Below are positions 7,120 through 54,219 of a DNA stretch of 64,000 nucleotides, piece by piece. Source of the stretch: an uncultured bacterium (GTDB lineage Bacteria; Bacteroidota; Ignavibacteria; Kapaibacteriales; UBA2268); contig OW818654.1 of NCBI GenBank assembly GCA_942492935.1, forward strand, positions 3,587,918 through 3,651,917. The letters run 5' to 3'. A program made the position numbers and the translations under genes. Every line of letters starts with the position of its first letter. The first letter of the stretch is position 1. The notes beneath the pieces were generated by a model. It saw only the letters and a program-made list of their open reading frames with translations. It did not search any database and was not told the origin of the DNA.

Positions 7120-9177
7120 TTATTTTTCTATTCTAATTCTACCATCAACAGCAATAACAGTATCTTTTTTCCCTAATAGTGGGTTCAAATCAAGCTCTGA
7201 AATTTCAGGAGCAGCATCAAGTAAGGCACTTAACCTAACAATAATATCTGCAAATATTTCTTGATTGACTCCTTCACGTTTTCGGACGCCTTCAATTAGC
7301 TTATAAGATTTCAACGATTTTATCATAGTCAATGCCTCTACTTTACTGATTGGTGCCAATCCAAAAGACACGTCTTTCAGAACCTCTATAAAAATTCCTC
7401 CAAGTCCGCAAAGAATTATATGTCCAAAATTGTCTTCATGTTTTGCACCTACAAATAATTCAGTACCATTCAACATCGGCTGCAAAAGTACACCAATAGC
7501 TCCTTCAATTTCCATCATCTTTTCAAATTCTGCTTCTACAGTAACTGCGTGCCTTAAATTAAGTGCAACTCCTCCAACATCTGTTTTATGAATAGGTCCA
7601 ATCACTTTCATAACCACAGGAAAACCTAATTCTTCAGCAAATTTAACTGCCATTTCTTTAGTATTTGCTAATCGTTCTGGTACTCTTGGTATTCCTGCAG
7701 AATCTAATAGAATTTGTATTTTATCAGGTGAGAGATAACCACTTTCTGACTTATCTATAATTTCTCTGATTTTTACTCTGTCAATTTCTGGAAATTCATA
7801 AGTTTCTGCTGGTTTTGGAGTAGTATAAACTTTTGAAAGTGCTGCTCCTAAAGATACTTCATCTGTAAAATCAATTCTGCCAAGTGAAAGGAAATGCTGA
7901 ACTGCTTTTCCTGCTTGTACTACTGATGGTAAGCATGGATAAATTGGCTTCTTGCACCATTTCATTTTTTCGTGAAGAACATCATAAACGCCGGTTACAT
8001 CAAACATACCGGTAGTTCCAAATATTACTACAGAAGCATCAATATTATGAAATTCTCTATCTACATATTCAAGAATTGTTCCTAATTGGTCAGCACTACC
8101 AGTTGCGAGAAAGTCAATCGGATTAGAAACTGAAGAACCATGATAAAGTTGGGAAAGCAATTCTTCGGCAGCAGCACCTGATATTGGAGGTACATTCAAG
8201 CCACCTTTTGCTAAAGCATCAGTTAGCATAACACCAGAACCACCTGCATGAGTAATAACCGCTATATTCGGACCTTGCAATTCTTTGTGAAGTAGCACCC
8301 CTGCTACATAAACAAGTTCAGCCCTTGAATGACAACGAACAACTCCAGCTTTTTTAAACAATGCATCAACAGCTGCATCCGAACCAGCCAATGCTCCTGT
8401 ATGAGATGATACTGCTCTTGAACCAGCTTCAGTAGTTCCAGCTTTAATTGCTGCAATCCTACAACCTTTATTGATTAAAGAACGACAATGTTTGAGTAAT
8501 TTTTCTGGTTTTATGATTTGTTCAATATAAAATAATTTTACTCTTGCACTTGTGGCTGGGTCAAAATGTTCGTCCCAATATTCAAGCACTTCTTCTACAC
8601 CTATTTGGGCGCTATTTCCAACTGATAATATATTTGAAAATCTCAAACCTCTTGGCACAGCCATTTCCAAAATAAAGCATATTGTAGCACCTGAACCTGA
8701 AACTAAATCACAACCATTTTTTTGAGCCAATTGTGGAACTAAACCAGCAAACACACCTTTATAATTTTCATTGAGAACACCAATACAATTCGGTCCAATT
8801 AAAGAACCATTTACAGATTCTGTAATTTCAACTAATTTTGCCTCTAATTTCTTGCCTTCTGCTCCAAATTCACTAAAACCTGCTGATAATACAATAAATG
8901 CTTTTGTTCCTTTTTCTTTTGCAAGAATTTCCATAGCACCGGGTATTGCTCTTGCAGGAATTGCCAGAATTGCAAGGTCTGTATTTTCAATTTCAGAAAC
9001 GCTCTGATAACATTTCAAACCCTGAACTAAATTTTCTTTCGGATTAACAGCGGTAATTCTACCTCTGAATCCACCGTCAATGATATTTTTAATAATTTTG
9101 CCACCGGGCTTTTCTACATCATTCGAACCACCCACAATAACAATACTTTTCGGATTTAATAATTCTTTAACTAACAT
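7120..9177 (-). CDS. ADP-forming acyl-CoA synthetase (acetate--CoA ligase [ADP-forming], fused alpha/beta; NDP-forming family)
   Basis: N-terminal CoA-binding domain (IVIVGGSN…). Succinyl-CoA-synthetase-like ligase-CoA domain. C-terminal ATP-grasp (…VMKV…GGVAL…). 685 aa, typical of the fused Acd. Confidence 0.8.
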   Translation of the reverse strand: MLVKELLNPKSIVIVGGSNDVEKPGGKIIKNIIDGGFRGRITAVNPKENLVQGLKCYQSVSEIENTDLAILAIPARAIPGAMEILAKEKGTKAFIVLSAGFSEFGAEGKKLEAKLVEITESVNGSLIGPNCIGVLNENYKGVFAGLVPQLAQKNGCDLVSGSGATICFILEMAVPRGLRFSNILSVGNSAQIGVEEVLEYWDEHFDPATSARVKLFYIEQIIKPEKLLKHCRSLINKGCRIAAIKAGTTEAGSRAVSSHTGALAGSDAAVDALFKKAGVVRCHSRAELVYVAGVLLHKELQGPNIAVITHAGGSGVMLTDALAKGGLNVPPISGAAAEELLSQLYHGSSVSNPIDFLATGSADQLGTILEYVDREFHNIDASVVIFGTTGMFDVTGVYDVLHEKMKWCKKPIYPCLPSVVQAGKAVQHFLSLGRIDFTDEVSLGAALSKVYTTPKPAETYEFPEIDRVKIREIIDKSESGYLSPDKIQILLDSAGIPRVPERLANTKEMAVKFAEELGFPVVMKVIGPIHKTDVGGVALNLRHAVTVEAEFEKMMEIEGAIGVLLQPMLNGTELFVGAKHEDNFGHIILCGLGGIFIEVLKDVSFGLAPISKVEALTMIKSLKSYKLIEGVRKREGVNQEIFADIIVRLSALLDAAPEISELDLNPLLGKKDTVIAVDGRIRIEK

Positions 9178-9497
9178 AATAACATTCTATAATTTATTTC
9201 AAAAATTAATTAATTTACACAATCAAATATATTAGCAAAATTACTCAAAACCTATTAAATTACAAAGTATTATAAAGAAAAATAAAACAATATACAGATT
9301 TTAAAGCTGACCATATCTTAAAACAAATTGATAACTATTCGACCGATATAATTTTATATTTGCCAGTTAATTTCAATTAAATATAAAGTACATTTGAAAT
9401 TAATGGAAAATAATGCACCCGTAAACAATTAGTTCCAAAATAGTATGTTTATTTTGATGCTCTAATTATGTTAATAATTCCTGCATAATTTTAAATT

Positions 9498-9671
9498 ATC
9501 GCGTAGTGATTGCATTATGGTAATAAATTTCAAATACAAAATTTCATTTATCACGTAGTGATTATACCATTTAACTTATAATATTACAAAATGTTACTAA
9601 TAATTTAATCACTACGTGATAACTCATCAAATAGCAATTCATCGCTTACCATAATTTAATCACTACGCGAT
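9498..9671. promoter_or_regulatory. Four 13-bp palindromic operator-like sites ATC(A/G)C-N3-GTGAT at 9498-9510, 9550-9562, 9608-9620 and 9659-9671, nested as outer and inner inverted pairs
   Basis: Read directly from the sequence. Sites 2 and 3 are perfect palindromes. Sites 1 and 4 are reverse complements of each other. Centre-to-centre spacing is 51-58 bp. Flanks also form a 28-bp inverted repeat (9490-9518 vs 9648-9676). Confidence 0.5.
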
Positions 9672-9918
9672 AAATTAAAAACATTTAGGAAAATTATTTA
9701 TCATTTTTACCCATAGAGTAAACATAACAGTACCAAACTCTTGTCTAACTTAGTAGTCAAACATCCTATGTTTTGGAATCATCGGATGTTTTAAAATAGT
9801 TAGCTGTAATATACACATGATTTTTTCACTTAGAAACTGAGCAATTTCAAAAAAATAACAATTCTTATAATTGAAAATTTGTTATTTTTGCTTTTTTGAA
9901 ATATAAACGGTAAAAATT

Positions 9919-10341
9919 ATGAAAAAATTAGTTGCTGTATTATTTATTATGAGTGTGATTTGGGGATGCTCTTCAAGTACTTCACCAGAAAGCATAATTG
10001 ATAACAATTGTATAGAATCTCGAATATTCTTTGGATTATCAAGTCCAGCAGGTGAAATAACAGATGAACAATGGCAATCATTTATGACAAATGAAATTGC
10101 TTCAAGATTTCCATCTGGATTCACTATAATAGATGCAATTGGATATTGGAGAGAATGTGATACGTGTCAATTTTATCAAGAAAAATCAAAAATGATGCTA
10201 TTAGTTTATCCTGATAGTTTATTCAAAAAAAATATACCGATAATTGAAGATATGGCTTACAAATATATAGAAAAATTTAATCAGCAAGCCGTACTTCAAT
10301 CATCAACAGAGGTCAATTGCGAATTTTATTTCAAAAAATGA
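9919..10341 (+). CDS. Hypothetical lipoprotein
   Basis: Signal peptide with lipobox (…VIWGC). 140 aa. No confident family assignment. Confidence 0.5.
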   Translation: MKKLVAVLFIMSVIWGCSSSTSPESIIDNNCIESRIFFGLSSPAGEITDEQWQSFMTNEIASRFPSGFTIIDAIGYWRECDTCQFYQEKSKMMLLVYPDSLFKKNIPIIEDMAYKYIEKFNQQAVLQSSTEVNCEFYFKK

Positions 10342-10343
10342 AA

Positions 10344-10700
10344 TCAATTAAACAATTTAATTGCTTCTTCTTTAGTTTCGCAAACAGGCATAACAGTACT
10401 TATTTTCAAAATTGATAATAAGTTTGATACCGTTTTATTTGCACCAAATAATACAATCTTAAAATCCTTATTATGCTTTTTTGCAAAGTCTTCGAGATTA
10501 TTATTTACAGTAATTATAGAACCAATACCGGCACTATCAATATAATCAACAGCGGTCAAATCAATTGCAAAAAATAATGACTCTGAAAATTTCTGTTCAA
10601 ATTGCTCTCTGAATGAAGCAAAATGTAAATTAGTGAATTTCGGTTCAAATACTTTAACTAACATAAAATTGTCGTTTTTTTCGAATGATAACTCAATCAT
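10344..10700 (-). CDS. STAS-domain anti-sigma-factor antagonist (SpoIIAA-like)
   Basis: 118 aa single STAS domain with the phosphorylatable DSAG motif (…VDYIDSAGIGSI…). Confidence 0.75.
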   Translation of the reverse strand: MIELSFEKNDNFMLVKVFEPKFTNLHFASFREQFEQKFSESLFFAIDLTAVDYIDSAGIGSIITVNNNLEDFAKKHNKDFKIVLFGANKTVSNLLSILKISTVMPVCETKEEAIKLFN

Positions 10701-10768
10701 TATTATATCCTTTAACAGTTATTTAAATTACAAATTTATTAAAAATATTCTAAGTTCTTATCATTAAA

Positions 10769-11377
10769 TTATTTTTTCTTTTGCATAATATCTCTTAAAA
10801 AGTTCTTTTGAAGAACGGGATTTTCGCTTGATGGAAATACTCCACCACTTATTTGTCTTACATCTTCAATTGAATAGAATGCATTAGGAGCAAAATTATT
10901 GATAATTTCTTTCACCTTTATCAAATCAAATCTTTTAATAACCATAAATATTACCTTGACTTCGCCATATTTGCCTTCTCCATCAACCAAAGTAACAGAA
11001 TAGTCCAAATCACGAATTTTTTGAACCATTTCTGGAGAATTAACACCCGATATTACGCGAACAATTATATATCCTAATGATATTTTACCTTCCAACCACA
11101 TTCCAACATAAGTACCAGTAGCAAATCCAGCAGCAAAAGCAGCATAATTGAACACGCTATTAGCACTGCTTAGTAATTGTCCAACTGTTGTTATCCAGAT
11201 AAATACTTCGATAAATCCAAGTGTAGATGCATAACCTCTATAACCTTTGCTAATTAGAATAATTCTCAATGTTCCTAAGCTCACATCAATTATTCTTGCG
11301 AGAAAAAGAAATAAAGGCAAAATCAGATAATTTATTATGTCAGGATTTACGCCTTCAAAAAAATTCAATAAATTCAT
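10769..11377 (-). CDS. DUF2179/UPF0316-family membrane protein
   Basis: N-terminal TM helices followed by a C-terminal soluble domain resembling DUF2179 (YebE/UPF0316-like). Confidence 0.45.
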   Translation of the reverse strand: MNLLNFFEGVNPDIINYLILPLFLFLARIIDVSLGTLRIILISKGYRGYASTLGFIEVFIWITTVGQLLSSANSVFNYAAFAAGFATGTYVGMWLEGKISLGYIIVRVISGVNSPEMVQKIRDLDYSVTLVDGEGKYGEVKVIFMVIKRFDLIKVKEIINNFAPNAFYSIEDVRQISGGVFPSSENPVLQKNFLRDIMQKKK

Positions 11378-47319: not shown

Positions 47320-48064
47320 GTGAAATTTATTAGATTCAACTTTAAAATGAATATGATTAATGAAATTTATAGAGCTAATACGAGGGGCTTTGCAAAATAT
47401 GACTGGCTCGAATCCTTTCATTCATTTAGTTTCTCTTCATATTATAACCCTCAGAGAATGGGCTTCGGATTGTTAAGGGTTTTAAATGATGATTGTGTCC
47501 AACCAAAAACAGGTTTTAGTACACATCCTCATAAAAATATGGAAATTATTTCCATTCCTTTGTCTGGTACTTTGACGCATCAGGATAGTACGGACGGTTT
47601 TATGGATATTTGCGAAAACAATGTTCAAATTATGTCTGCTGGATATGGAATTGAACATTCCGAAATGAATAACTCAAGCACAGAAGAAGCTAAGTTTTTT
47701 GCAGATATGGATTTATCCTAAGCTTAAAAACATCGCTCCAAGATATGAAATGAAGTATTATAATCGTGAATTATATAAAAATAATTTTTTTCCAGTAGTT
47801 GCTCCTGATAGAGCAGATACTTCCCTTTGGATAAATCAAGATGCTGTGATTTCATTATTAGATTTAGATAAAGATAATTCTGCTGAATACAAAGTAAATT
47901 TTTTTGGTAATGGTTTATTTTTATTCGTAATTGAAGGCAAAGTTGAATATAAAGAGAATATTTTAGACAGACGTGATTCTATTTCGGTTGCAACAGTTGA
48001 ATATTTTGAGATTAAAGCACAAGAAAATTCTAAATTATTGCTGATAGAAGTTCCATTAATTTAA
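47320..48064 (+). pseudogene. Pirin-family (bicupin) gene interrupted by a +1 frameshift in a T6 homopolymer (~47695-47700)
   Basis: ORF 47320-47721 carries the pirin N-cupin (HPHKNMEIISIPLSG…SAGYGIEHSEMN). ORF 47699-48064 in the next frame carries the motif QIWIYPK and the C-terminal cupin. Deleting one T restores …EEAKFLQIWIYPK…. Confidence 0.6.
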
Positions 48065-48096: not shown

Positions 48097-50271
48097 ATGA
48101 ATTCTTACTCTCTCGGTATAAGTGGTAATTGGTTTCTGGTAGTTTTGCTTGTTTTGATTGCAGTTGGGATTTCATTCTGGACGTATCGCAGAACTGTTCC
48201 TGAAATTCCATTAAATAAAAAGATATTATTAATTTCATTTAGAATTATTGCAATATTTTTACTGTTATTTGCTCTTTTTGAGCCGGTTCTTACTATGATT
48301 ACAGGTAAGAGTTTGCCACCGGGAATAGTTTTTCTATTTGATAATTCAGTATCATCTTCACTAAAAGATGCAAAAACTGATAGAAAGCAAGATTATCAAA
48401 GTATTATAAATAATATTGATTTTGAAAAAAATAAAGAAAATTCAAAATACAATTTATTTGATGAAACTGTAGTTCAATTGAATGATTTTTCTTTCGATTC
48501 ATTGAATTTTAAAGGACAATTAACAGATATTTCAAAAGCAATTAATTTTGCATCGGTTGATGCTGAAAAATCAAATCTTAAAGCAGTAGTTTTGTTAACT
48601 GATGGTGCTTTTAATACTGGTAGCAATCCTTTATATTCTGCTGAACTACTTGGCAAACCAATTTATGTGGTTGGATTAGGGGACTCTTCATTTCCAAAAG
48701 ATTTATCTGTTCAAAGTATAATTACTAATGAAATTGCTTATATAAATAATCCTGTTCCTGTAAATGTAAATGTTAGAATTTCAGGTTATGAATCTGGCGA
48801 AGCAAAACTAACAATTTCAGATAATAATAAGAAAATTTCTGAACAGAATATTTTTATAAATCCTGATATCAATGATTATTCTGCTGTCATAGATTATTTG
48901 CCAACAGAAGAGGGAATTCGAAAAATTACCGCCACAATTTCAAAAGCAGATGAGGAAATTACAGAAAAAAATAATTCAGCTTCAGAATTTATTAAAGTAT
49001 TAAAAAACAAAAGAAAAATTGCTTTGTTTGCAGGAAGTCCAAGTGCGGATGTTGGTTTTGTGAAACAAGTATTAGCTAAAGAAGAAGGTATTGAAATTGC
49101 AGAATACATTCAGCAAGTTGGTGCTAAATTCTATAATGAACCAAATGCAAGTTTGTTAAATGATGCTGAATTTTTTGTACTTATAGGATTTCCTATTAAT
49201 ACTACTCCACAAAATGTACTAAATTTAATTGCAAAAGAGCTTGAAAGGGGAAAATCTATTCTTTTTATTGCAGGGCAACAAACTGATTATGCTAAATTAA
49301 AATCTTTAGAACAATATTTGCCATTTAATACAGCTTCTTCTTCACCACAGGAATTTTTAGCTACATTAGATGTTAGCCCTCAATCATTATCAAGTTCTTT
49401 GTTAAGAGTTACAGGTACTGATGCGGATATTGATTATTGGAATAATTTGCCTCCTTTGTTTAGAACAGAAACATTTGTGAGAACAAAACCAGAAAGTGAT
49501 TTCGTTGCTGGTTTCAAAGTGAATAATGTAGTTCTGAAAGAACCAATGATATTGACACGCGATTTTCAAAATAAAAAATCTGTAGCTTTCCTTGGATATG
49601 GCTTATATCGCTGGAAATTACTTGGTTATGCTCAGGATATGTCCAAAGGTAGAACAGAAACTCCTGATTTATTCAGTATATTAGTTGCAAATTCATTCAA
49701 ATGGCTTTCCATAAATGAAAAGCTAAAGAATGTAATTATCAAAACAAATAAGAAAATTTATGCAAGTTATGAAAAAGTGGAATTCATAGCATCTGTTTAT
49801 GATGCGGCATATACACCTTTAGATAATTGTGATTTAATTGTAAATTTAAAATCTGGTAACGAAAGCCGTGATATTCCATTGGTGAATATTGGAAATGGTA
49901 GATATACAGGTATAATTGAAGGATTAGAATCTGGGGATTATAATTTTAGTGGAACTGCAAAATACAAAGACAGAGTTATCGGAACTGATAATGGAAGATT
50001 CAATATTGGTGATTTGTCCGCTGAATATCAAAATCTGCAAATGAATATTGGGTTGCTGAAAGAACTTGCTATTAGAACAGGCGGTAAATTTTATACAAAA
50101 GACAATGTTTCTCAATTAATAAATGATATTAATTCTCATAAAAAATTCAAAACAAAAGATGTTACTGTTAAAAGTGAATTTGGAATATGGAATATTTGGT
50201 GGGTTTTGGCTATAGCATTACTTTTGTTTTCATTAGAATGGGTAATTAGAAAAAGAGCGGGGATGATTTAA
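48097..50271 (+). CDS. VWA-domain membrane protein with BatA-like N-terminal double-TM anchor and C-terminal TM helix
   Basis: N-terminal two TM helices. MIDAS-like FLFDNSVSSS. LLTDGAFNTG motif. C-terminal IWNIWWVLAIALLLF. Its stop overlaps the next gene start (TAATG). Confidence 0.55.
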   Translation: MNSYSLGISGNWFLVVLLVLIAVGISFWTYRRTVPEIPLNKKILLISFRIIAIFLLLFALFEPVLTMITGKSLPPGIVFLFDNSVSSSLKDAKTDRKQDYQSIINNIDFEKNKENSKYNLFDETVVQLNDFSFDSLNFKGQLTDISKAINFASVDAEKSNLKAVVLLTDGAFNTGSNPLYSAELLGKPIYVVGLGDSSFPKDLSVQSIITNEIAYINNPVPVNVNVRISGYESGEAKLTISDNNKKISEQNIFINPDINDYSAVIDYLPTEEGIRKITATISKADEEITEKNNSASEFIKVLKNKRKIALFAGSPSADVGFVKQVLAKEEGIEIAEYIQQVGAKFYNEPNASLLNDAEFFVLIGFPINTTPQNVLNLIAKELERGKSILFIAGQQTDYAKLKSLEQYLPFNTASSSPQEFLATLDVSPQSLSSSLLRVTGTDADIDYWNNLPPLFRTETFVRTKPESDFVAGFKVNNVVLKEPMILTRDFQNKKSVAFLGYGLYRWKLLGYAQDMSKGRTETPDLFSILVANSFKWLSINEKLKNVIIKTNKKIYASYEKVEFIASVYDAAYTPLDNCDLIVNLKSGNESRDIPLVNIGNGRYTGIIEGLESGDYNFSGTAKYKDRVIGTDNGRFNIGDLSAEYQNLQMNIGLLKELAIRTGGKFYTKDNVSQLINDINSHKKFKTKDVTVKSEFGIWNIWWVLAIALLLFSLEWVIRKRAGMI

Positions 50272-52280
50272 TGATGAAAAAAATAATATATATATCATTT
50301 TTTGTAATTGTATTCAATAGCTTATTGTTGGCAGATTTGAGAGATTCTCTCTTTAATGCAACAGGTGAAAGAAGATTGGAATTATTAAACAATTTGTCAT
50401 CTCAACATACACTTGGTTCGCCACGTGAAGCATTGAACTATGCCACAGAAGCTATTAAACTTGCAACAGATTTAAAAGATACTCTTGCACTTGCAAAAGC
50501 ATATTACAATCTGGGAAATTCATATTTTTTTGCTGGATATTACCCTGAATCAAAAAAATCATTTTTGCAATCTGGAACTTATTATTTATCATCAAATAAC
50601 AAAACAGAATATGCCAATGCTATAGTTGAAGCTGCAAAAAAAGCAACAATTTTAAATCAATTTGAAGAAGCATATAAATTATTTGATGAAGCAATTAAAG
50701 TATTTCAAGAGCAAAAGGAAATTCTTTATAATGTTACCGCATTAATTGAATATAGTAAATCTCTTAGAGCTACTAAAAATTCCAAAGCATTAGAAGTTCT
50801 TGATGAAGCTTTTAAAATTTCTGAAGAAAGAATGAGGGACAAGCAAATTAAGCCATTGATAATTTTTGAAACAGGCAACTATTATTTTGCTTTAGGTGAA
50901 TTTGATTTAGCAATTAAAAAATATTCCGAAGCAAAAGCAATCTATGATAAAATGAAAGATAGACAAAATTCAGCAGAATGTTTGATGAATATTGGTTATG
51001 CTCAAAAAGAACTTGGAAATAATGCAGAAGCCCAACAAAAATTTATACAAGCTCTTCCTATGTATGAAAATCCAAAAGATAGAGAAGGACTTAGATTAGT
51101 ATATGATAATTTATATAGAATTGAATACGAGAATGGGAATTATAAGGAAGCTATCAAATATCTTGAAAAACATACTGAAATACTAAAAGAATATTACAGC
51201 ATGAATGTTTTTAGAGCCGAATCTCAAAAAAAATTAGAAAGGGAATCTAATAACAGAGAAAAATATGAAATGCAAAGTCGTCAGCAAGAACTCGAAAAGC
51301 AAAGAGTACTATTAGAAAAAAAAGCAAAAGAAATGCAGCTTTCTACAGAAAGGTCAAGATTAATATCGTTAGCTGTTCTGTTGATTTTACTTGTTGTAGT
51401 AGCATATTTTCTTTTTAAACAGAATAAAATTAAAAAGAAAATCAATATTATGTTAGAGGAAAAAAATCTTGCATTGACTGAGAAAAACATTGAAATTGAA
51501 AATCAGAAAAAGGCAATTCAAGAAAAGAATAATGAGATTCTGGCAGGTATTCGCTATGCAAGTCAAATACAAAATGCAATTTTACCAAATGATGATGAAG
51601 CAGCCCAACTGTTTAAAGAATACTTTATATTTTTCAAGCCAAAAGATATAGTTTCAGGTGATTTTTATTGGTTTTACCAAACCGAAAAAGACATTTTCAT
51701 TACAGTAGCAGATTGCACAGGTCATGGCGTTCCGGGAGCATTTATGTCTTTAATAGGAACGGTTTTTCAAAATGAAATTGTGATTGAAAAGAAAGAAACA
51801 AATCCAGCAAATATTTTGAAATTACTTAATAATGCAGTTCGTGATGCCTTAAAGCAAGACGAGAATGATGCTAATCAAGATGGGATGGATATAGCCGTGT
51901 TAAGAATATCAAAAAATGACAACAAACTTACTTTTGCTGGAGCAAAAAGACCTCTTTATTACTTTGATAATGATAAATTAATTGAAATCAAAGGTGATAA
52001 ATTTTCTATTGGTGGCGTGCAATTGACAGATGTGAATTTCACTGAAATTGAAATCATGCTTAAAAAAGACATGAAATTCTATCTCACAACTGATGGATTT
52101 GCTGACCAAAATAATTCTCAAAACAAAAAGTATAATACAAAGCAATTAAAATTATTCCTTGAAAAAATTCATAACGAAAAAATGGCAACACAATTGAAAA
52201 TGATTGAAGATGAATTTAATTCATTCAAAGGTGATGAACCACAGAGAGACGATGTAACAATTCTTGGATTCAAGATTTAA
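50271..52280 (+). CDS. Transmembrane sensor PP2C-type Ser/Thr phosphatase (signal peptide + TPR repeats + TM + coiled coil + SpoIIE/PP2C domain)
   Basis: TPR-like repeats (AKAYYNLGNSYF…). TM LISLAVLLILLVVVAYFLF. PP2C motifs ADCTGHGVPGAFMS and TTDGFADQ. Confidence 0.75.
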   Translation: MMKKIIYISFFVIVFNSLLLADLRDSLFNATGERRLELLNNLSSQHTLGSPREALNYATEAIKLATDLKDTLALAKAYYNLGNSYFFAGYYPESKKSFLQSGTYYLSSNNKTEYANAIVEAAKKATILNQFEEAYKLFDEAIKVFQEQKEILYNVTALIEYSKSLRATKNSKALEVLDEAFKISEERMRDKQIKPLIIFETGNYYFALGEFDLAIKKYSEAKAIYDKMKDRQNSAECLMNIGYAQKELGNNAEAQQKFIQALPMYENPKDREGLRLVYDNLYRIEYENGNYKEAIKYLEKHTEILKEYYSMNVFRAESQKKLERESNNREKYEMQSRQQELEKQRVLLEKKAKEMQLSTERSRLISLAVLLILLVVVAYFLFKQNKIKKKINIMLEEKNLALTEKNIEIENQKKAIQEKNNEILAGIRYASQIQNAILPNDDEAAQLFKEYFIFFKPKDIVSGDFYWFYQTEKDIFITVADCTGHGVPGAFMSLIGTVFQNEIVIEKKETNPANILKLLNNAVRDALKQDENDANQDGMDIAVLRISKNDNKLTFAGAKRPLYYFDNDKLIEIKGDKFSIGGVQLTDVNFTEIEIMLKKDMKFYLTTDGFADQNNSQNKKYNTKQLKLFLEKIHNEKMATQLKMIEDEFNSFKGDEPQRDDVTILGFKI

Positions 52281-52290
52281 AGAGGCAAAT

Positions 52291-52824
52291 ATGAAAGCAT
52301 TGGATTTATTTAACGCAACCGATAAAGCAGAAAACATACTTTTCTTTTTTAGAGGTGGATTATCACAAGAAATATTGGTTGAATTTAGTAATTATATGAA
52401 AGCACAATATTTCCACGGTAAAGTTTCTAAGAAAATATTATCTGTTTTTGTAGAATTATGGCAAAATATTATGCACTATTCTTCAGAAAGAGTGTGTTTT
52501 GATGGTAAAGATATTGGCTCGGGAATAATTATTTTCTCTGAAAATGCAAACAAATATATCATAACTTCTGGAAATCAGATACAAAATATTCAAGTTAATA
52601 AATTGCTTAGTAAACTATCCGAATATAAAGGCAAAAGTTCTGAAGAACTAAAAGAAATATATATGAAATTAATAAATCAAGACCCAGAATCAGACAGTAA
52701 AGGAGCAGGACTTGGTTTTATTGATATTGCAAGAAAATGCAATGGTAATTTTGATTTTTCGATTACTGAATTAAATGAAAATTATTCTTTTTTTGAGTTG
52801 AATGTGGAAATTTTAAAAGGGTAA
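52291..52824 (+). CDS. SiaB-like GHKL-type Ser/Thr protein kinase (anti-sigma-factor-like HATPase)
   Basis: N-box-like ELWQNIMHY. G2 box SKGAGLGFIDIARK. About 177 aa. AGAGG RBS upstream of ATG 52291; the track start at 52264 overlaps the upstream gene. Confidence 0.6.
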   Translation: MKALDLFNATDKAENILFFFRGGLSQEILVEFSNYMKAQYFHGKVSKKILSVFVELWQNIMHYSSERVCFDGKDIGSGIIIFSENANKYIITSGNQIQNIQVNKLLSKLSEYKGKSSEELKEIYMKLINQDPESDSKGAGLGFIDIARKCNGNFDFSITELNENYSFFELNVEILKG

Positions 52825-52827
52825 ATT

Positions 52828-53199
52828 ATGAATAATCTTATAGTAAAAGCAAGTAAAACTACTCCTGAAATTAATTTTAATTTTGAAACAGGAATTTTGT
52901 GTATTTCTGGTGAATCATATCCTGAAAATTCAAAAGAATTTTATGCGGAGCCATTTCAATGTATTAATAGAGCCGTTGAGCAAAAAAAAGAACTTAGTTT
53001 TAATTTTAAATTGACTTATTTCAATACAAGTTCATCAAAAATCATTCTTGATATAATTAGATTATTGAATAATTATCATCTAAATGGTGGTAAAGTGATT
53101 TTAAACTGGTTCTATGAAGAAGATGACGAAGATATTTATGACAGCGGTGTTGAATTTACAGATGGTTTAGAATTAAAATGTAACTTTGTTTCCTATTAA
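52828..53199 (+). CDS. DUF1987-family (SiaC-like) partner-switching substrate protein
   Basis: Characteristic DUF1987 pattern: …FNFETGILCISGESYPEN…FKLTYFNTSSSKIILDII…VILNWFYEEDDEDIYDSG…. Confidence 0.7.
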   Translation: MNNLIVKASKTTPEINFNFETGILCISGESYPENSKEFYAEPFQCINRAVEQKKELSFNFKLTYFNTSSSKIILDIIRLLNNYHLNGGKVILNWFYEEDDEDIYDSGVEFTDGLELKCNFVSY

Positions 53200-53211
53200 A
53201 AGAATAAAATT

Positions 53212-54219
53212 ATGTCAGAAAGTATATTTGAAAGAGAAATACAGCTTAGCCAAACTATTAATGATTTTTTAAATAGTTACTCAAATGAAGTTGATGAATA
53301 TAGAAATCAATTGGTAATGCTTGTTGAAGAATACAACGCATTATTATCGCAATCTGAAAAATTAGTAAAAATTGGCGATACAACTCAACGAAAATTACGT
53401 AATGCTAAACAATTACTTGAAGAGCAAAACGAAGAGATTAATGAGAAGAATTTAAAATTGATTCAGTTAAACCAAGAAAATGAGAATTATTTAAAACAAA
53501 TAAATAATGATTTGAATCAAGCGGTTAAATATATTCATTCTTTATTACCGCCATATTTAACAAATGAAAATATTGGAATAAGCTGGAAATTTGTACCATC
53601 ATCATCACTTGGTGGTGATTTATTTGGATATAGATGGTTAGATGATAAGAATATAATGATATTTCTTATTGATGTTTGCGGACATGGAGTTAGGTCTGCA
53701 TTATATTCTGTTTCAGTACGCAATACATTGTATTATATGAATTTACCAAATACAGATTTTTATGAACCCCCGAGTGTATTTGCTGGGTTGAACGAAATGT
53801 ATAAGATGAAAGAGCATAACGATTTATATTTTACTATCTGGTATGGAGTTTACAATGTTAAAAGTAGAGAATTGAATTATTCTACTTCTGGGCATCCCCC
53901 TGCATTTGGAATTATAAATGGTAAAAGATTTGAACTTGCCACAGATAACTTTCTAATCGGTGTATTAAGACAATATCCTTATATTTCAGAAAAAATTATT
54001 GTTGAAAGTGGAACAAGTTTGTATATTTTTTCTGATGGTGCTTATGAAATTCAAAAAGAAGATAATGAAATGTGGACACTTGAAGAAATGCAAAATTATT
54101 TGATTGAATCACAATCAAAAGAAAATACAGAACTAAATATGCTGTACGAATATATTCAGAATCTGCATATAAATAAAAATATTGATGATGACTTTACGAT
54201 TATGAAAATTTCATTTTAG
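53212..54219 (+). CDS. Cytoplasmic PP2C-type Ser/Thr phosphatase (SpoIIE/RsbU-like) with N-terminal coiled coil
   Basis: Motifs IDVCGHGVRSALYS and FSDGAYE. No TM helix. Confidence 0.75.
   Translation: MSESIFEREIQLSQTINDFLNSYSNEVDEYRNQLVMLVEEYNALLSQSEKLVKIGDTTQRKLRNAKQLLEEQNEEINEKNLKLIQLNQENENYLKQINNDLNQAVKYIHSLLPPYLTNENIGISWKFVPSSSLGGDLFGYRWLDDKNIMIFLIDVCGHGVRSALYSVSVRNTLYYMNLPNTDFYEPPSVFAGLNEMYKMKEHNDLYFTIWYGVYNVKSRELNYSTSGHPPAFGIINGKRFELATDNFLIGVLRQYPYISEKIIVESGTSLYIFSDGAYEIQKEDNEMWTLEEMQNYLIESQSKENTELNMLYEYIQNLHINKNIDDDFTIMKISF

Follow-up and report, generated by a model that had tools for sequence, protein, structure and literature searches.

The DNA under study is a 64,000-nucleotide stretch of contig OW818654.1 (assembly GCA_942492935.1, forward strand) from an uncultured bacterium of the Kapaibacteriales, referred to below as the window. 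It encodes on its + strand five consecutive genes, here designated g1 to g5 (Table 1), and our analysis indicates that g2 to g5 probably form a partner-switching operon of the Sia type that has a PP2C phosphatase in place of the diguanylate cyclase SiaD, with g5 as the predicted SiaC-docked effector in the SiaD position. The reference system of Pseudomonas aeruginosa (PA0172-PA0169) comprises the membrane PP2C SiaA, the kinase SiaB, the phosphoprotein SiaC and the diguanylate cyclase SiaD, and the order phosphatase, kinase, SiaC and stalk effector is the same in the window, the PP2C in the position of SiaD being the new element. A preliminary description of this locus had assigned no output to the system, which no longer holds, as profile comparison, alignment and gene order place in the SiaD position a protein with a SiaD-type, putatively SiaC-binding stalk.

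The N-terminal region of g5 is where this assignment originates. Within the 80 SiaC-seeded genomes surveyed, the gene immediately after SiaC often encodes a protein whose similarity to g5 is confined to the first ~100 residues, and Pfam assigns widely differing C-terminal domains to these proteins. Indeed, when 129 genes neighbouring SiaC on the same strand were classified with Pfam, no output family dominated, because the element common to them is an N-terminal module for which there is no Pfam model. This module, hereafter the stalk, has the core motif Y-x-x-L-L-x-Q-x-x-K-L-x-[KR]-[IV]-[GS]-D-x-x-Q-x-[KR]-L and, in g5 numbering, the invariant residues Y41, D56 and L62 and the near-invariant E9, L44 and Q59. 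A hidden Markov model (HMM) of the stalk, run on 101 loci and the window, matches 47 proteins, always at the N-terminus; SiaC is present in the same locus for 43 of these, and 39 are encoded immediately downstream of SiaC on the same strand. When the window is translated in six frames, g5 is the only match. The C-terminal parts of the 47 proteins are class III nucleotide cyclases (18, eight of which carry a GAF domain, including that of Leptospira interrogans, and one hemerythrin), PP2C phosphatases (8), GGDEF domains (6), HisKA/HATPase histidine kinases (4), a Hanks-type kinase (1) and an MFS transporter (1), the remaining nine being short or membrane-tailed proteins. A stalk-GGDEF gene is found in only two of the 80 SiaC-seeded loci (L009, L012), and the lack of an adjacent GGDEF gene, which had been taken as an unusual feature of the window, is the rule in this branch.

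Since these first loci had been chosen through SiaC, we also carried out the converse test, a metagenome scan seeded with the stalk motif alone (K[LI]x[KR]IGD[STV][TAS]Q, derived from an 8-sequence subset of the alignment). The scan returned 16 confirmed loci, and SiaB and SiaC are immediately upstream in 14 of them; one of the other two is cut upstream by the contig end, and the second lies on a contig of 2 kb, where the 1.6 kb upstream of the match contain no SiaC. The specificity of the HMM is evidenced by the close PP2C relatives of g5, of which 135 out of 150, many with other linkers, give no match, while the g5 architecture (316-351 aa with the same N-terminus) is common to 15 of the 150 best representative clusters.

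The crystal structure in which SiaC is bound to SiaD provides the frame for interpreting the stalk: SiaC binds two repeated motifs on the long stalk helix of SiaD, the distal one including S50 and Q54, and its Thr68 inserts between two SiaD stalks and bonds S82 and Q86, while N67, S69 and Y65 contact D83 and Q86, and E110 contacts R80 and R84; phosphorylation of Thr68 prevents binding (PMC8457831). Among 177,635 PDB sequences the top match of the stalk profile is SiaD itself (7e6g_A, E = 0.0062), in an alignment that covers the proximal LEKVARISDRYQ (K77-Q86) and, weakly, the distal LERIARISDGFQ; an earlier and cruder profile ranked SiaD third. Likewise, residues 1-105 of g5, compared with 18,950 NCBIfam models, match best the SiaD model NF038266, in its N-terminal part (E = 0.0088), as is also the case for the N-terminus of the Leptospira cyclase, and the match of the stalk-GGDEF proteins (L103, L009, L012) to the SiaD model extends over almost the entire model. 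A word-index protein search with residues 1-105 of g5 alone returned no match.

We have analyzed the conservation of the interface in 43 SiaC-stalk pairs, with positions given in Pseudomonas numbering. On the stalk side, D83 is present in all 43 pairs and Q86 in 41, position 78 is always L or I and position 81 always aliphatic, whereas K77 (34 of 43), a basic R or K at R80 (39) and G or S at S82 (40) are conserved to a somewhat lower extent. On the side of SiaC, Y65 and N67 are invariant in the 43 proteins, S69 is found in 42, position 68 is T in 39 and S in the other four, and position 110 is E or D in 37; Y31 is also among the conserved contact residues. The salt bridge formed in Pseudomonas between SiaC R103 and SiaD D91 is charge-reversed in this branch, with D in 38 of the 43 SiaC proteins and K, R or N in 33 of the 43 stalks. 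Despite modest individual E-values, sequence, interface residues and gene context converge on a predicted SiaD-type SiaC-binding stalk in g5.

A number of observations nevertheless weigh against this interpretation. The stalk-SiaD match is statistically modest (15 bits in NCBIfam, in addition to the PDB value given above) and falls in a helical, charge-rich region; g5 has one SiaC-binding motif and SiaD has two; the charge swap may correspond to a single ancestral change and not to repeated covariation; and the single-sequence AlphaFold prediction of g5 yields one helix (residues 5-111, with a predicted local distance difference test score, pLDDT, of ~90) and does not produce the PP2C fold. 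The low scores and the make-up of the region, a single long helix with many E, K, Q, L and N residues, would also be expected if the N-terminal similarity reflected the compositional bias of coiled coils; the position of g5 after SiaC would then be fortuitous, and g5 a cytoplasmic PP2C of the ordinary kind. We consider this highly improbable, as the invariants Y41, D56, Q59 and L62 are position-specific, the HMM matches are all N-terminal and SiaC-linked, the motif-seeded scan regains SiaB-SiaC in nearly all loci, the 135 PP2C relatives are not matched by the HMM, and SiaD comes first in both PDB and NCBIfam.

The catalytic domain that follows the stalk in g5 is a SpoIIE/PP2C domain (114 bits over residues 144-334) with intact catalytic motifs (GGDLFGY at 134, DVCGHG at 154, SDGAYE at 274 and DDDFT at 325). 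Its closest PDB sequence is P. aeruginosa RssB (3eq2, E = 2.9e-12), while the match of g5 to SiaA amounts to only 23 bits and is located in the linker. The domain has 698 relatives at E ≤ 1e-30 among 1.84 billion representative proteins, most of which are C-terminal domains of larger sensor phosphatases. The two phosphatases of the operon had been described as a duplicated pair; their catalytic domains share 21% identity, that of g2 being SiaA-like and that of g5 RssB/RsbU-like, and a recent duplication of g2 was rejected as the origin of g5 on the basis of this identity.

The remaining three proteins of the operon correspond to the Sia core. In g2, a signal/anchor helix (residues 5-23) is followed by a TPR domain (~30-310), a coiled coil, a transmembrane helix (364-382) and a PP2C domain (~430-669). 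Pfam detects the TPR repeats and a SpoIIE/PP2C domain with 68.8 bits (cut-off 25), the C-terminal 280 residues (390-669) match the NCBIfam SiaA model NF038263 with 199 bits, under the 700-bit equivalog cut-off, and the sole PDB match of the phosphatase domain is SiaA-PP2C (6k4e, E = 1.9e-40). The catalytic motifs (SGDFYW at 462, ADCTGHG at 480, TDGFAD at 607 and RDDVT at 659) retain the metal-binding Asp and Gly residues. The two hydrophobic segments, of which the second is followed by the Lys-rich KQNKIKKK, indicate that the PP2C domain is cytoplasmic and the TPR domain is not, so that the extracytoplasmic TPR sensor proposed earlier for this phosphatase is borne out by Pfam and hydropathy.

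The kinase g3 matches DUF6272 (PF19788, 125 bits) and the SiaB-family kinase model NF038262 (144 bits, cut-off 85), scores 83 bits with the equivalog NF038264, under its 225-bit cut-off, and aligns with SiaB as crystallized together with SiaC (6kko_A, E = 9e-14); 'vyiEmtqN' has its counterpart in VELWQN, with both Glu and Asn retained, and GAGLG is present. For g4 the match to PF09345 reaches 130 bits (cut-off 24.5) and that to the SiaC equivalog NF038265 89 bits, under the 150-bit cut-off, with E = 3e-17 against 6kko_C/6k4f. The segment YFNTSS around T67, which aligns with the phosphorylated Thr68 of SiaC, is invariant in 27 homologues. The HMM check thus passed curated thresholds for the four assignments made previously (SiaB, SiaC, the transmembrane TPR-PP2C and the soluble PP2C), and the profile and PDB matches of g2 to g4 sustain the threonine-phosphorylation switch proposed for this locus, with no diguanylate cyclase: neither GGDEF nor any nucleotide-cyclase domain was found across the whole 64 kb of the window, in agreement with what had been stated earlier for GGDEF proteins.

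From these parts we propose a mechanism in which every binding and catalytic step is carried over from homologous systems. The membrane phosphatase g2, which has a periplasmic TPR sensor, would through its SiaA-like domain remove the phosphate from Thr67 of g4, and g3 would restore it. Unphosphorylated g4 would dock through its Thr67 surface onto K-L-V-K-I-G-D-T-T-Q in the N-terminal helix of g5, as SiaC does on SiaD, and this docking would pair two g5 stalks as a parallel coiled coil and so set the activity of the dimeric PP2C, by analogy with SiaC-SiaD and RsbT-RsbU; phosphorylation of Thr67 would then free g5. In the RsbT/RsbU case, a coiled-coil linker controlled by the partner protein is described as switching PP2C, GGDEF and histidine-kinase outputs (PMC12143880). 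The complete chain, including a g5 substrate encoded elsewhere in the genome, is put forward tentatively and falls somewhat short of an even chance.

Other than possibly phosphorylated SiaC (g4), no substrate of g5 is encoded within the operon, and two roles can be envisaged for the docked phosphatase: an output whose target is a phosphoprotein from another part of the genome, such as an antagonist of the STAS type, or an enzyme acting back on phosphorylated SiaC. We slightly favour the output role, since six of the eight stalk-PP2C loci retain a separate SiaA-like or HAMP-linked PP2C, for which g5 would therefore be no replacement, since the other stalk fusions are output enzymes or a transporter, and since the catalytic domain of g5 is of the RssB/RsbU and not of the SiaA type. 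The known substrates of RssB/RsbU-type phosphatases are STAS proteins.

These same facts speak against g5 as a feedback phosphatase, in which case the docking would be identical but dephosphorylated SiaC would activate g5 towards phosphorylated SiaC, resulting in a self-reinforcing switch triggered by g2 whose actual outputs would be further proteins with a stalk, from genes outside this operon. This arrangement is rather unlikely in our view, even if several observations fit it as well as they fit an output role. SiaC is the only phosphoprotein of the operon, and in six loci no conserved candidate substrate gene follows g5 on its 3' side. The Kapabacteria locus L090 has a three-gene form, SiaB, SiaC and stalk-PP2C, and no SiaA-like gene nearby. 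The stalk-PP2C and stalk-cyclase found in a single operon of Thiomargarita (L019) could be an amplifier plus an output. Moreover, the stalk-PP2C of L107 is not linked to any SiaC, from which it follows that SiaC clients can be encoded apart from the switch genes; this 319-aa protein (L107:901-1860), with no SiaC in the 7.9 kb retrieved, lies directly upstream of fliP-fliQ-fliR-flhB-flhA.

The gene order itself is recurrent. Orthologues of g5 are found immediately after SiaC in L088, L089, L090, L108, L109 and L019, the latter in a HAMP-PP2C variant of the operon, and full-length orthologues of g2 are the first gene of the same operon in L088, L089, L108 and L109. In L089, L108 and L109 the four-gene order TPR-PP2C, SiaB, SiaC and PP2C occurs without g1, which indicates that the conserved unit consists of four genes. 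The locus had been described as a five-gene unit that includes the VWA gene g1 and a duplicated phosphatase. Read in this way, g1 would be a functional partner, the two PP2Cs redundant or duplicated input phosphatases acting on SiaC, and the output a protein bound by SiaC or SiaB. In favour of such a unit are the one-base overlap of g1 and g2 (TAATG), the same arrangement in one close relative (L088, in which g1 is 86% identical) and the intact catalytic motifs of both phosphatases. However, g1 directly precedes the TPR-PP2C gene only in the window and in L088, its orthologues (49-56% identical) occur on six other contigs (L001-L007) with no adjacent Sia gene, the module recurs without it, the two phosphatases belong to different PP2C branches, and a SiaD-type stalk would not be expected on an input phosphatase. 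We thus regard the five-gene view as improbable. The candidacy of g1 as a module component was rejected for lack of conserved synteny: it is a lineage-specific neighbour, probably co-transcribed with g2 in the window.

Table 1. Features of the locus, with positions in the window and the evidence for each
Feature	Position	Strand	Evidence
g1, probable VWA/MIDAS-domain protein with three transmembrane helices	48097..50271	+	MIDAS conservation, AlphaFold model, Foldseek
g2, SiaA-like input phosphatase	50271..52280	+	Pfam TPR_12 and SpoIIE, NCBIfam SiaA, PDB 6k4e
g3, SiaB-family serine/threonine kinase, 177 aa	52291..52824	+	PF19788, NF038262, 6kko_A
g4, SiaC-family switch phosphoprotein, 123 aa	52828..53199	+	PF09345, 6kko_C/6k4f
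g4 Thr67 codon, predicted phospho-acceptor	53026..53028	+	aligns with SiaC Thr68
g5, stalk-PP2C, soluble, 335 aa	53212..54219	+	SpoIIE, catalytic motifs, stalk HMM
N-terminal stalk module of g5, aa 5-78	53224..53445	+	alignments with post-SiaC proteins, HMM
Predicted SiaC-binding motif of g5, K50-L-V-K-I-G55-D56-T-T-Q59-R-K-L62	53359..53397	+	aligns with SiaD K77-V-A-R-I-S82-D83-R-Y-Q86

The g1 protein belongs to a family of ~725 aa (724 aa in the window) which has no Pfam model and keeps roughly 50% identity throughout Ignavibacteria and Kapabacteria. No Pfam match was found above threshold (VWA_2 with E = 0.078, and no BatA_N), and the sole similarity to BatA is a 23-bit match with the C-terminal end of a BatA model from Leptospira. 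The MIDAS motif D82-x-S84-x-S86, T143 and D169 shows no or almost no variation among 40 orthologues, and the AlphaFold model (pLDDT 85) comprises an N-terminal pair of transmembrane helices, an alpha/beta domain (residues 64-193), two beta-sandwiches, a second alpha/beta domain and a C-terminal transmembrane helix. Foldseek against the PDB returned domain-level matches only (OST48, ANTXR2 and CARDB), the best fold match being the OST48/DDOST subunit of oligosaccharyltransferase. Of the earlier designation of g1 as a VWA/BatA-like membrane protein, the first part probably stands, given the MIDAS motif and the model, and the BatA likeness does not. With BatA-type aerotolerance proteins g1 shares the N-terminal double transmembrane helix followed by a domain of, in g1, probable VWA/MIDAS type; it differs from them in the absence of a BatA_N or VWA Pfam match above threshold, in its extra beta-sandwich and alpha/beta domains and C-terminal transmembrane helix, and in its context, as no gene of a MoxR/DUF58/Bat operon was found among its neighbours in eight loci.

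All five + strand open reading frames of the preliminary description are present. For g3, the most likely start is the ATG at 52291, which yields 177 aa as in the orthologues, the alternative being a TTG at 52264; given the former, the intergenic gaps g2-g3, g3-g4 and g4-g5 are 10, 3 and 12 nt. On the 3' side, g5 is followed by 207 bp and then by the convergent mreD and mreC; a pirin gene lies upstream of g1, and the remaining neighbourhood consists of housekeeping genes. Promoter-like sites (54 against 54.1 expected) and terminator-like sites (3 against 2.6) are no more frequent than in the shuffled sequence used as control and are thus uninformative on transcription units, and Rfam and repeat scans returned nothing relevant. 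The pirin gene (47344-48064, +) is interrupted, since an indel of one base in the run of T at ~47694-47700 leaves two open reading frames, 47320/47344-47721 and 47699-48064; this is either a homopolymer sequencing error or a recent pseudogene. Relatives have an intact pirin gene of 236 aa immediately upstream of their g1 orthologue. Of the contigs on which no Sia gene adjoins g1, the three nearest (two orthologues, 55-56% identity) have pirin as the conserved partner of g1, at a distance of 9 nt.

In comparison with SiaABCD, sequence homology links the PP2C domain of g2 to SiaA, g3 to SiaB and g4 to SiaC, and conservation extends to the phospho-acceptor threonine, to the surface through which SiaC makes its contacts and to the stalk motif [KR]-[IV]-[GS]-D-x-x-Q. 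The differences are that the catalytic domain of the effector is here a PP2C and not a GGDEF domain, so that the output would not be cyclic di-GMP (c-di-GMP), that the effector carries a single SiaC-binding motif, that the sensor of g2 is a periplasmic TPR domain without HAMP, and that none of the four proteins reaches the cut-off of an NCBI equivalog model for SiaA, SiaB or SiaC, the threshold of the SiaB subfamily model alone being passed.

A second set of related systems is that of the dimeric PPM phosphatases with crossing helical linkers, controlled by a partner or a receiver domain, such as RsbT-RsbU of Bacillus subtilis and RssB/RssC of P. aeruginosa. As in these, g5 is a soluble PP2C placed behind an N-terminal helical, predicted partner-binding region, and its catalytic domain is nearest to that of P. 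aeruginosa RssB by sequence. The N-terminal module of g5 is, however, neither the four-helix bundle of RsbU nor a receiver domain, and its partner would be a STAS-like phosphoprotein (SiaC) and not a kinase (RsbT). As with the stalk, one N-terminal module is found for RsbT/RsbU on PP2C, GGDEF and histidine-kinase outputs, which has been termed an 'exchangeable toolkit' (PMC12143880). Finally, the locus shares with the RsbU/RsbV/RsbW and SpoIIE/SpoIIAA/SpoIIAB systems the combination of a PP2C, a GHKL-type Ser/Thr kinase and a small antagonist of STAS-like fold that can be phosphorylated (PMC7647112). It differs from them in that it has no evident sigma factor or anti-sigma function, in that the antagonist family is DUF1987/SiaC, and in that the switch protein is here proposed to bind the stalk of an effector and not to sequester the kinase.

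The survey provided further observations on the distribution of stalk and switch proteins. In L. interrogans ATCC 43642 (L016:4064-11861) SiaB-SiaC is found between a ~1,800-aa Pkinase-AAA_16-GAF-SpoIIE protein and the stalk-GAF-class III cyclase, an arrangement of the Leptospira genes that is also seen in L010, L011, L014 and L017 and that implies SiaC-controlled synthesis of cyclic AMP or cyclic GMP (cAMP/cGMP) in a pathogen. The stalk fused to a Hanks-type Ser/Thr kinase (L091:4950-6239) has SiaB-SiaC directly upstream, and that fused to the MFS transporter (L102:202-1686) is cut upstream by the contig end. Two stalk effectors occur in one operon in Chloracidobacterium (L012:10001-12926), in the order SiaC, stalk-GGDEF, SiaB and stalk-histidine kinase, and in Thiomargarita (L019:1-5057), in the order SiaB, HAMP-PP2C, SiaC, stalk-PP2C and stalk-cyclase-hemerythrin. 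Stalk-only proteins of ~108 aa are encoded right after SiaC in L087:10408-10728, L096:696-1022, L097:1791-2114 and L101:1435-1758, and in L022, L036 and L043 (at ~10380-10930) SiaC is followed by a stalk protein of 160-180 aa that ends in a hydrophobic tail; both kinds might be decoys, membrane anchors or adaptors.

With respect to the switch genes, a conserved ~280-aa protein with no Pfam match, seen before SiaB in many Bacteroidia loci, lies between a ~1,100-aa PP2C sensor and SiaB in L059, L060, L063, L066, L072, L073, L075 and L076 (~8400-9400). Three tandem SiaC paralogues without an adjacent SiaB are found in L025 and L044 (~10000-11300), and a single 291-aa open reading frame of L079 (~9100-10000) matches both SiaC and SiaB and is a possible fusion.

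The present understanding of SiaABCD is limited to a single organism and a single output, c-di-GMP. Those who determined the SiaC-SiaD structure went no further than to suggest a possible regulation of 'adjacent proteins' by members of the DUF1987 family (PMC8457831); this speculation is the only mention of DUF1987 in the literature we searched, the coverage of which was incomplete, and no description of non-GGDEF clients of SiaC was found there. The comparison of stalks makes this suggestion concrete, in that it provides a sequence motif which marks SiaC clients, and it suggests that the SiaD-type docking helix is a portable part placed on many different output enzymes. In its general form, we give roughly even chances to the proposal that the ~75-residue stalk is a portable receptor of SiaC and that SiaB/SiaC is a general phospho-switch for at least seven kinds of effector, namely GGDEF proteins, class III cyclases (including the GAF-cyclase of L. 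interrogans), histidine kinases, a Hanks kinase, PP2C phosphatases, an MFS transporter and small membrane proteins. The motif rule predicts SiaC control of phosphatases, of cAMP/cGMP cyclases, one of them in pathogenic Leptospira, of histidine and Ser/Thr kinases and possibly of a transporter. If the reading of the stalk as a portable receptor is true, the window would contain a previously undescribed relay from phosphatase to SiaC to phosphatase, and the Sia family would become a second, independent case of the toolkit principle proposed for RsbT/RsbU.

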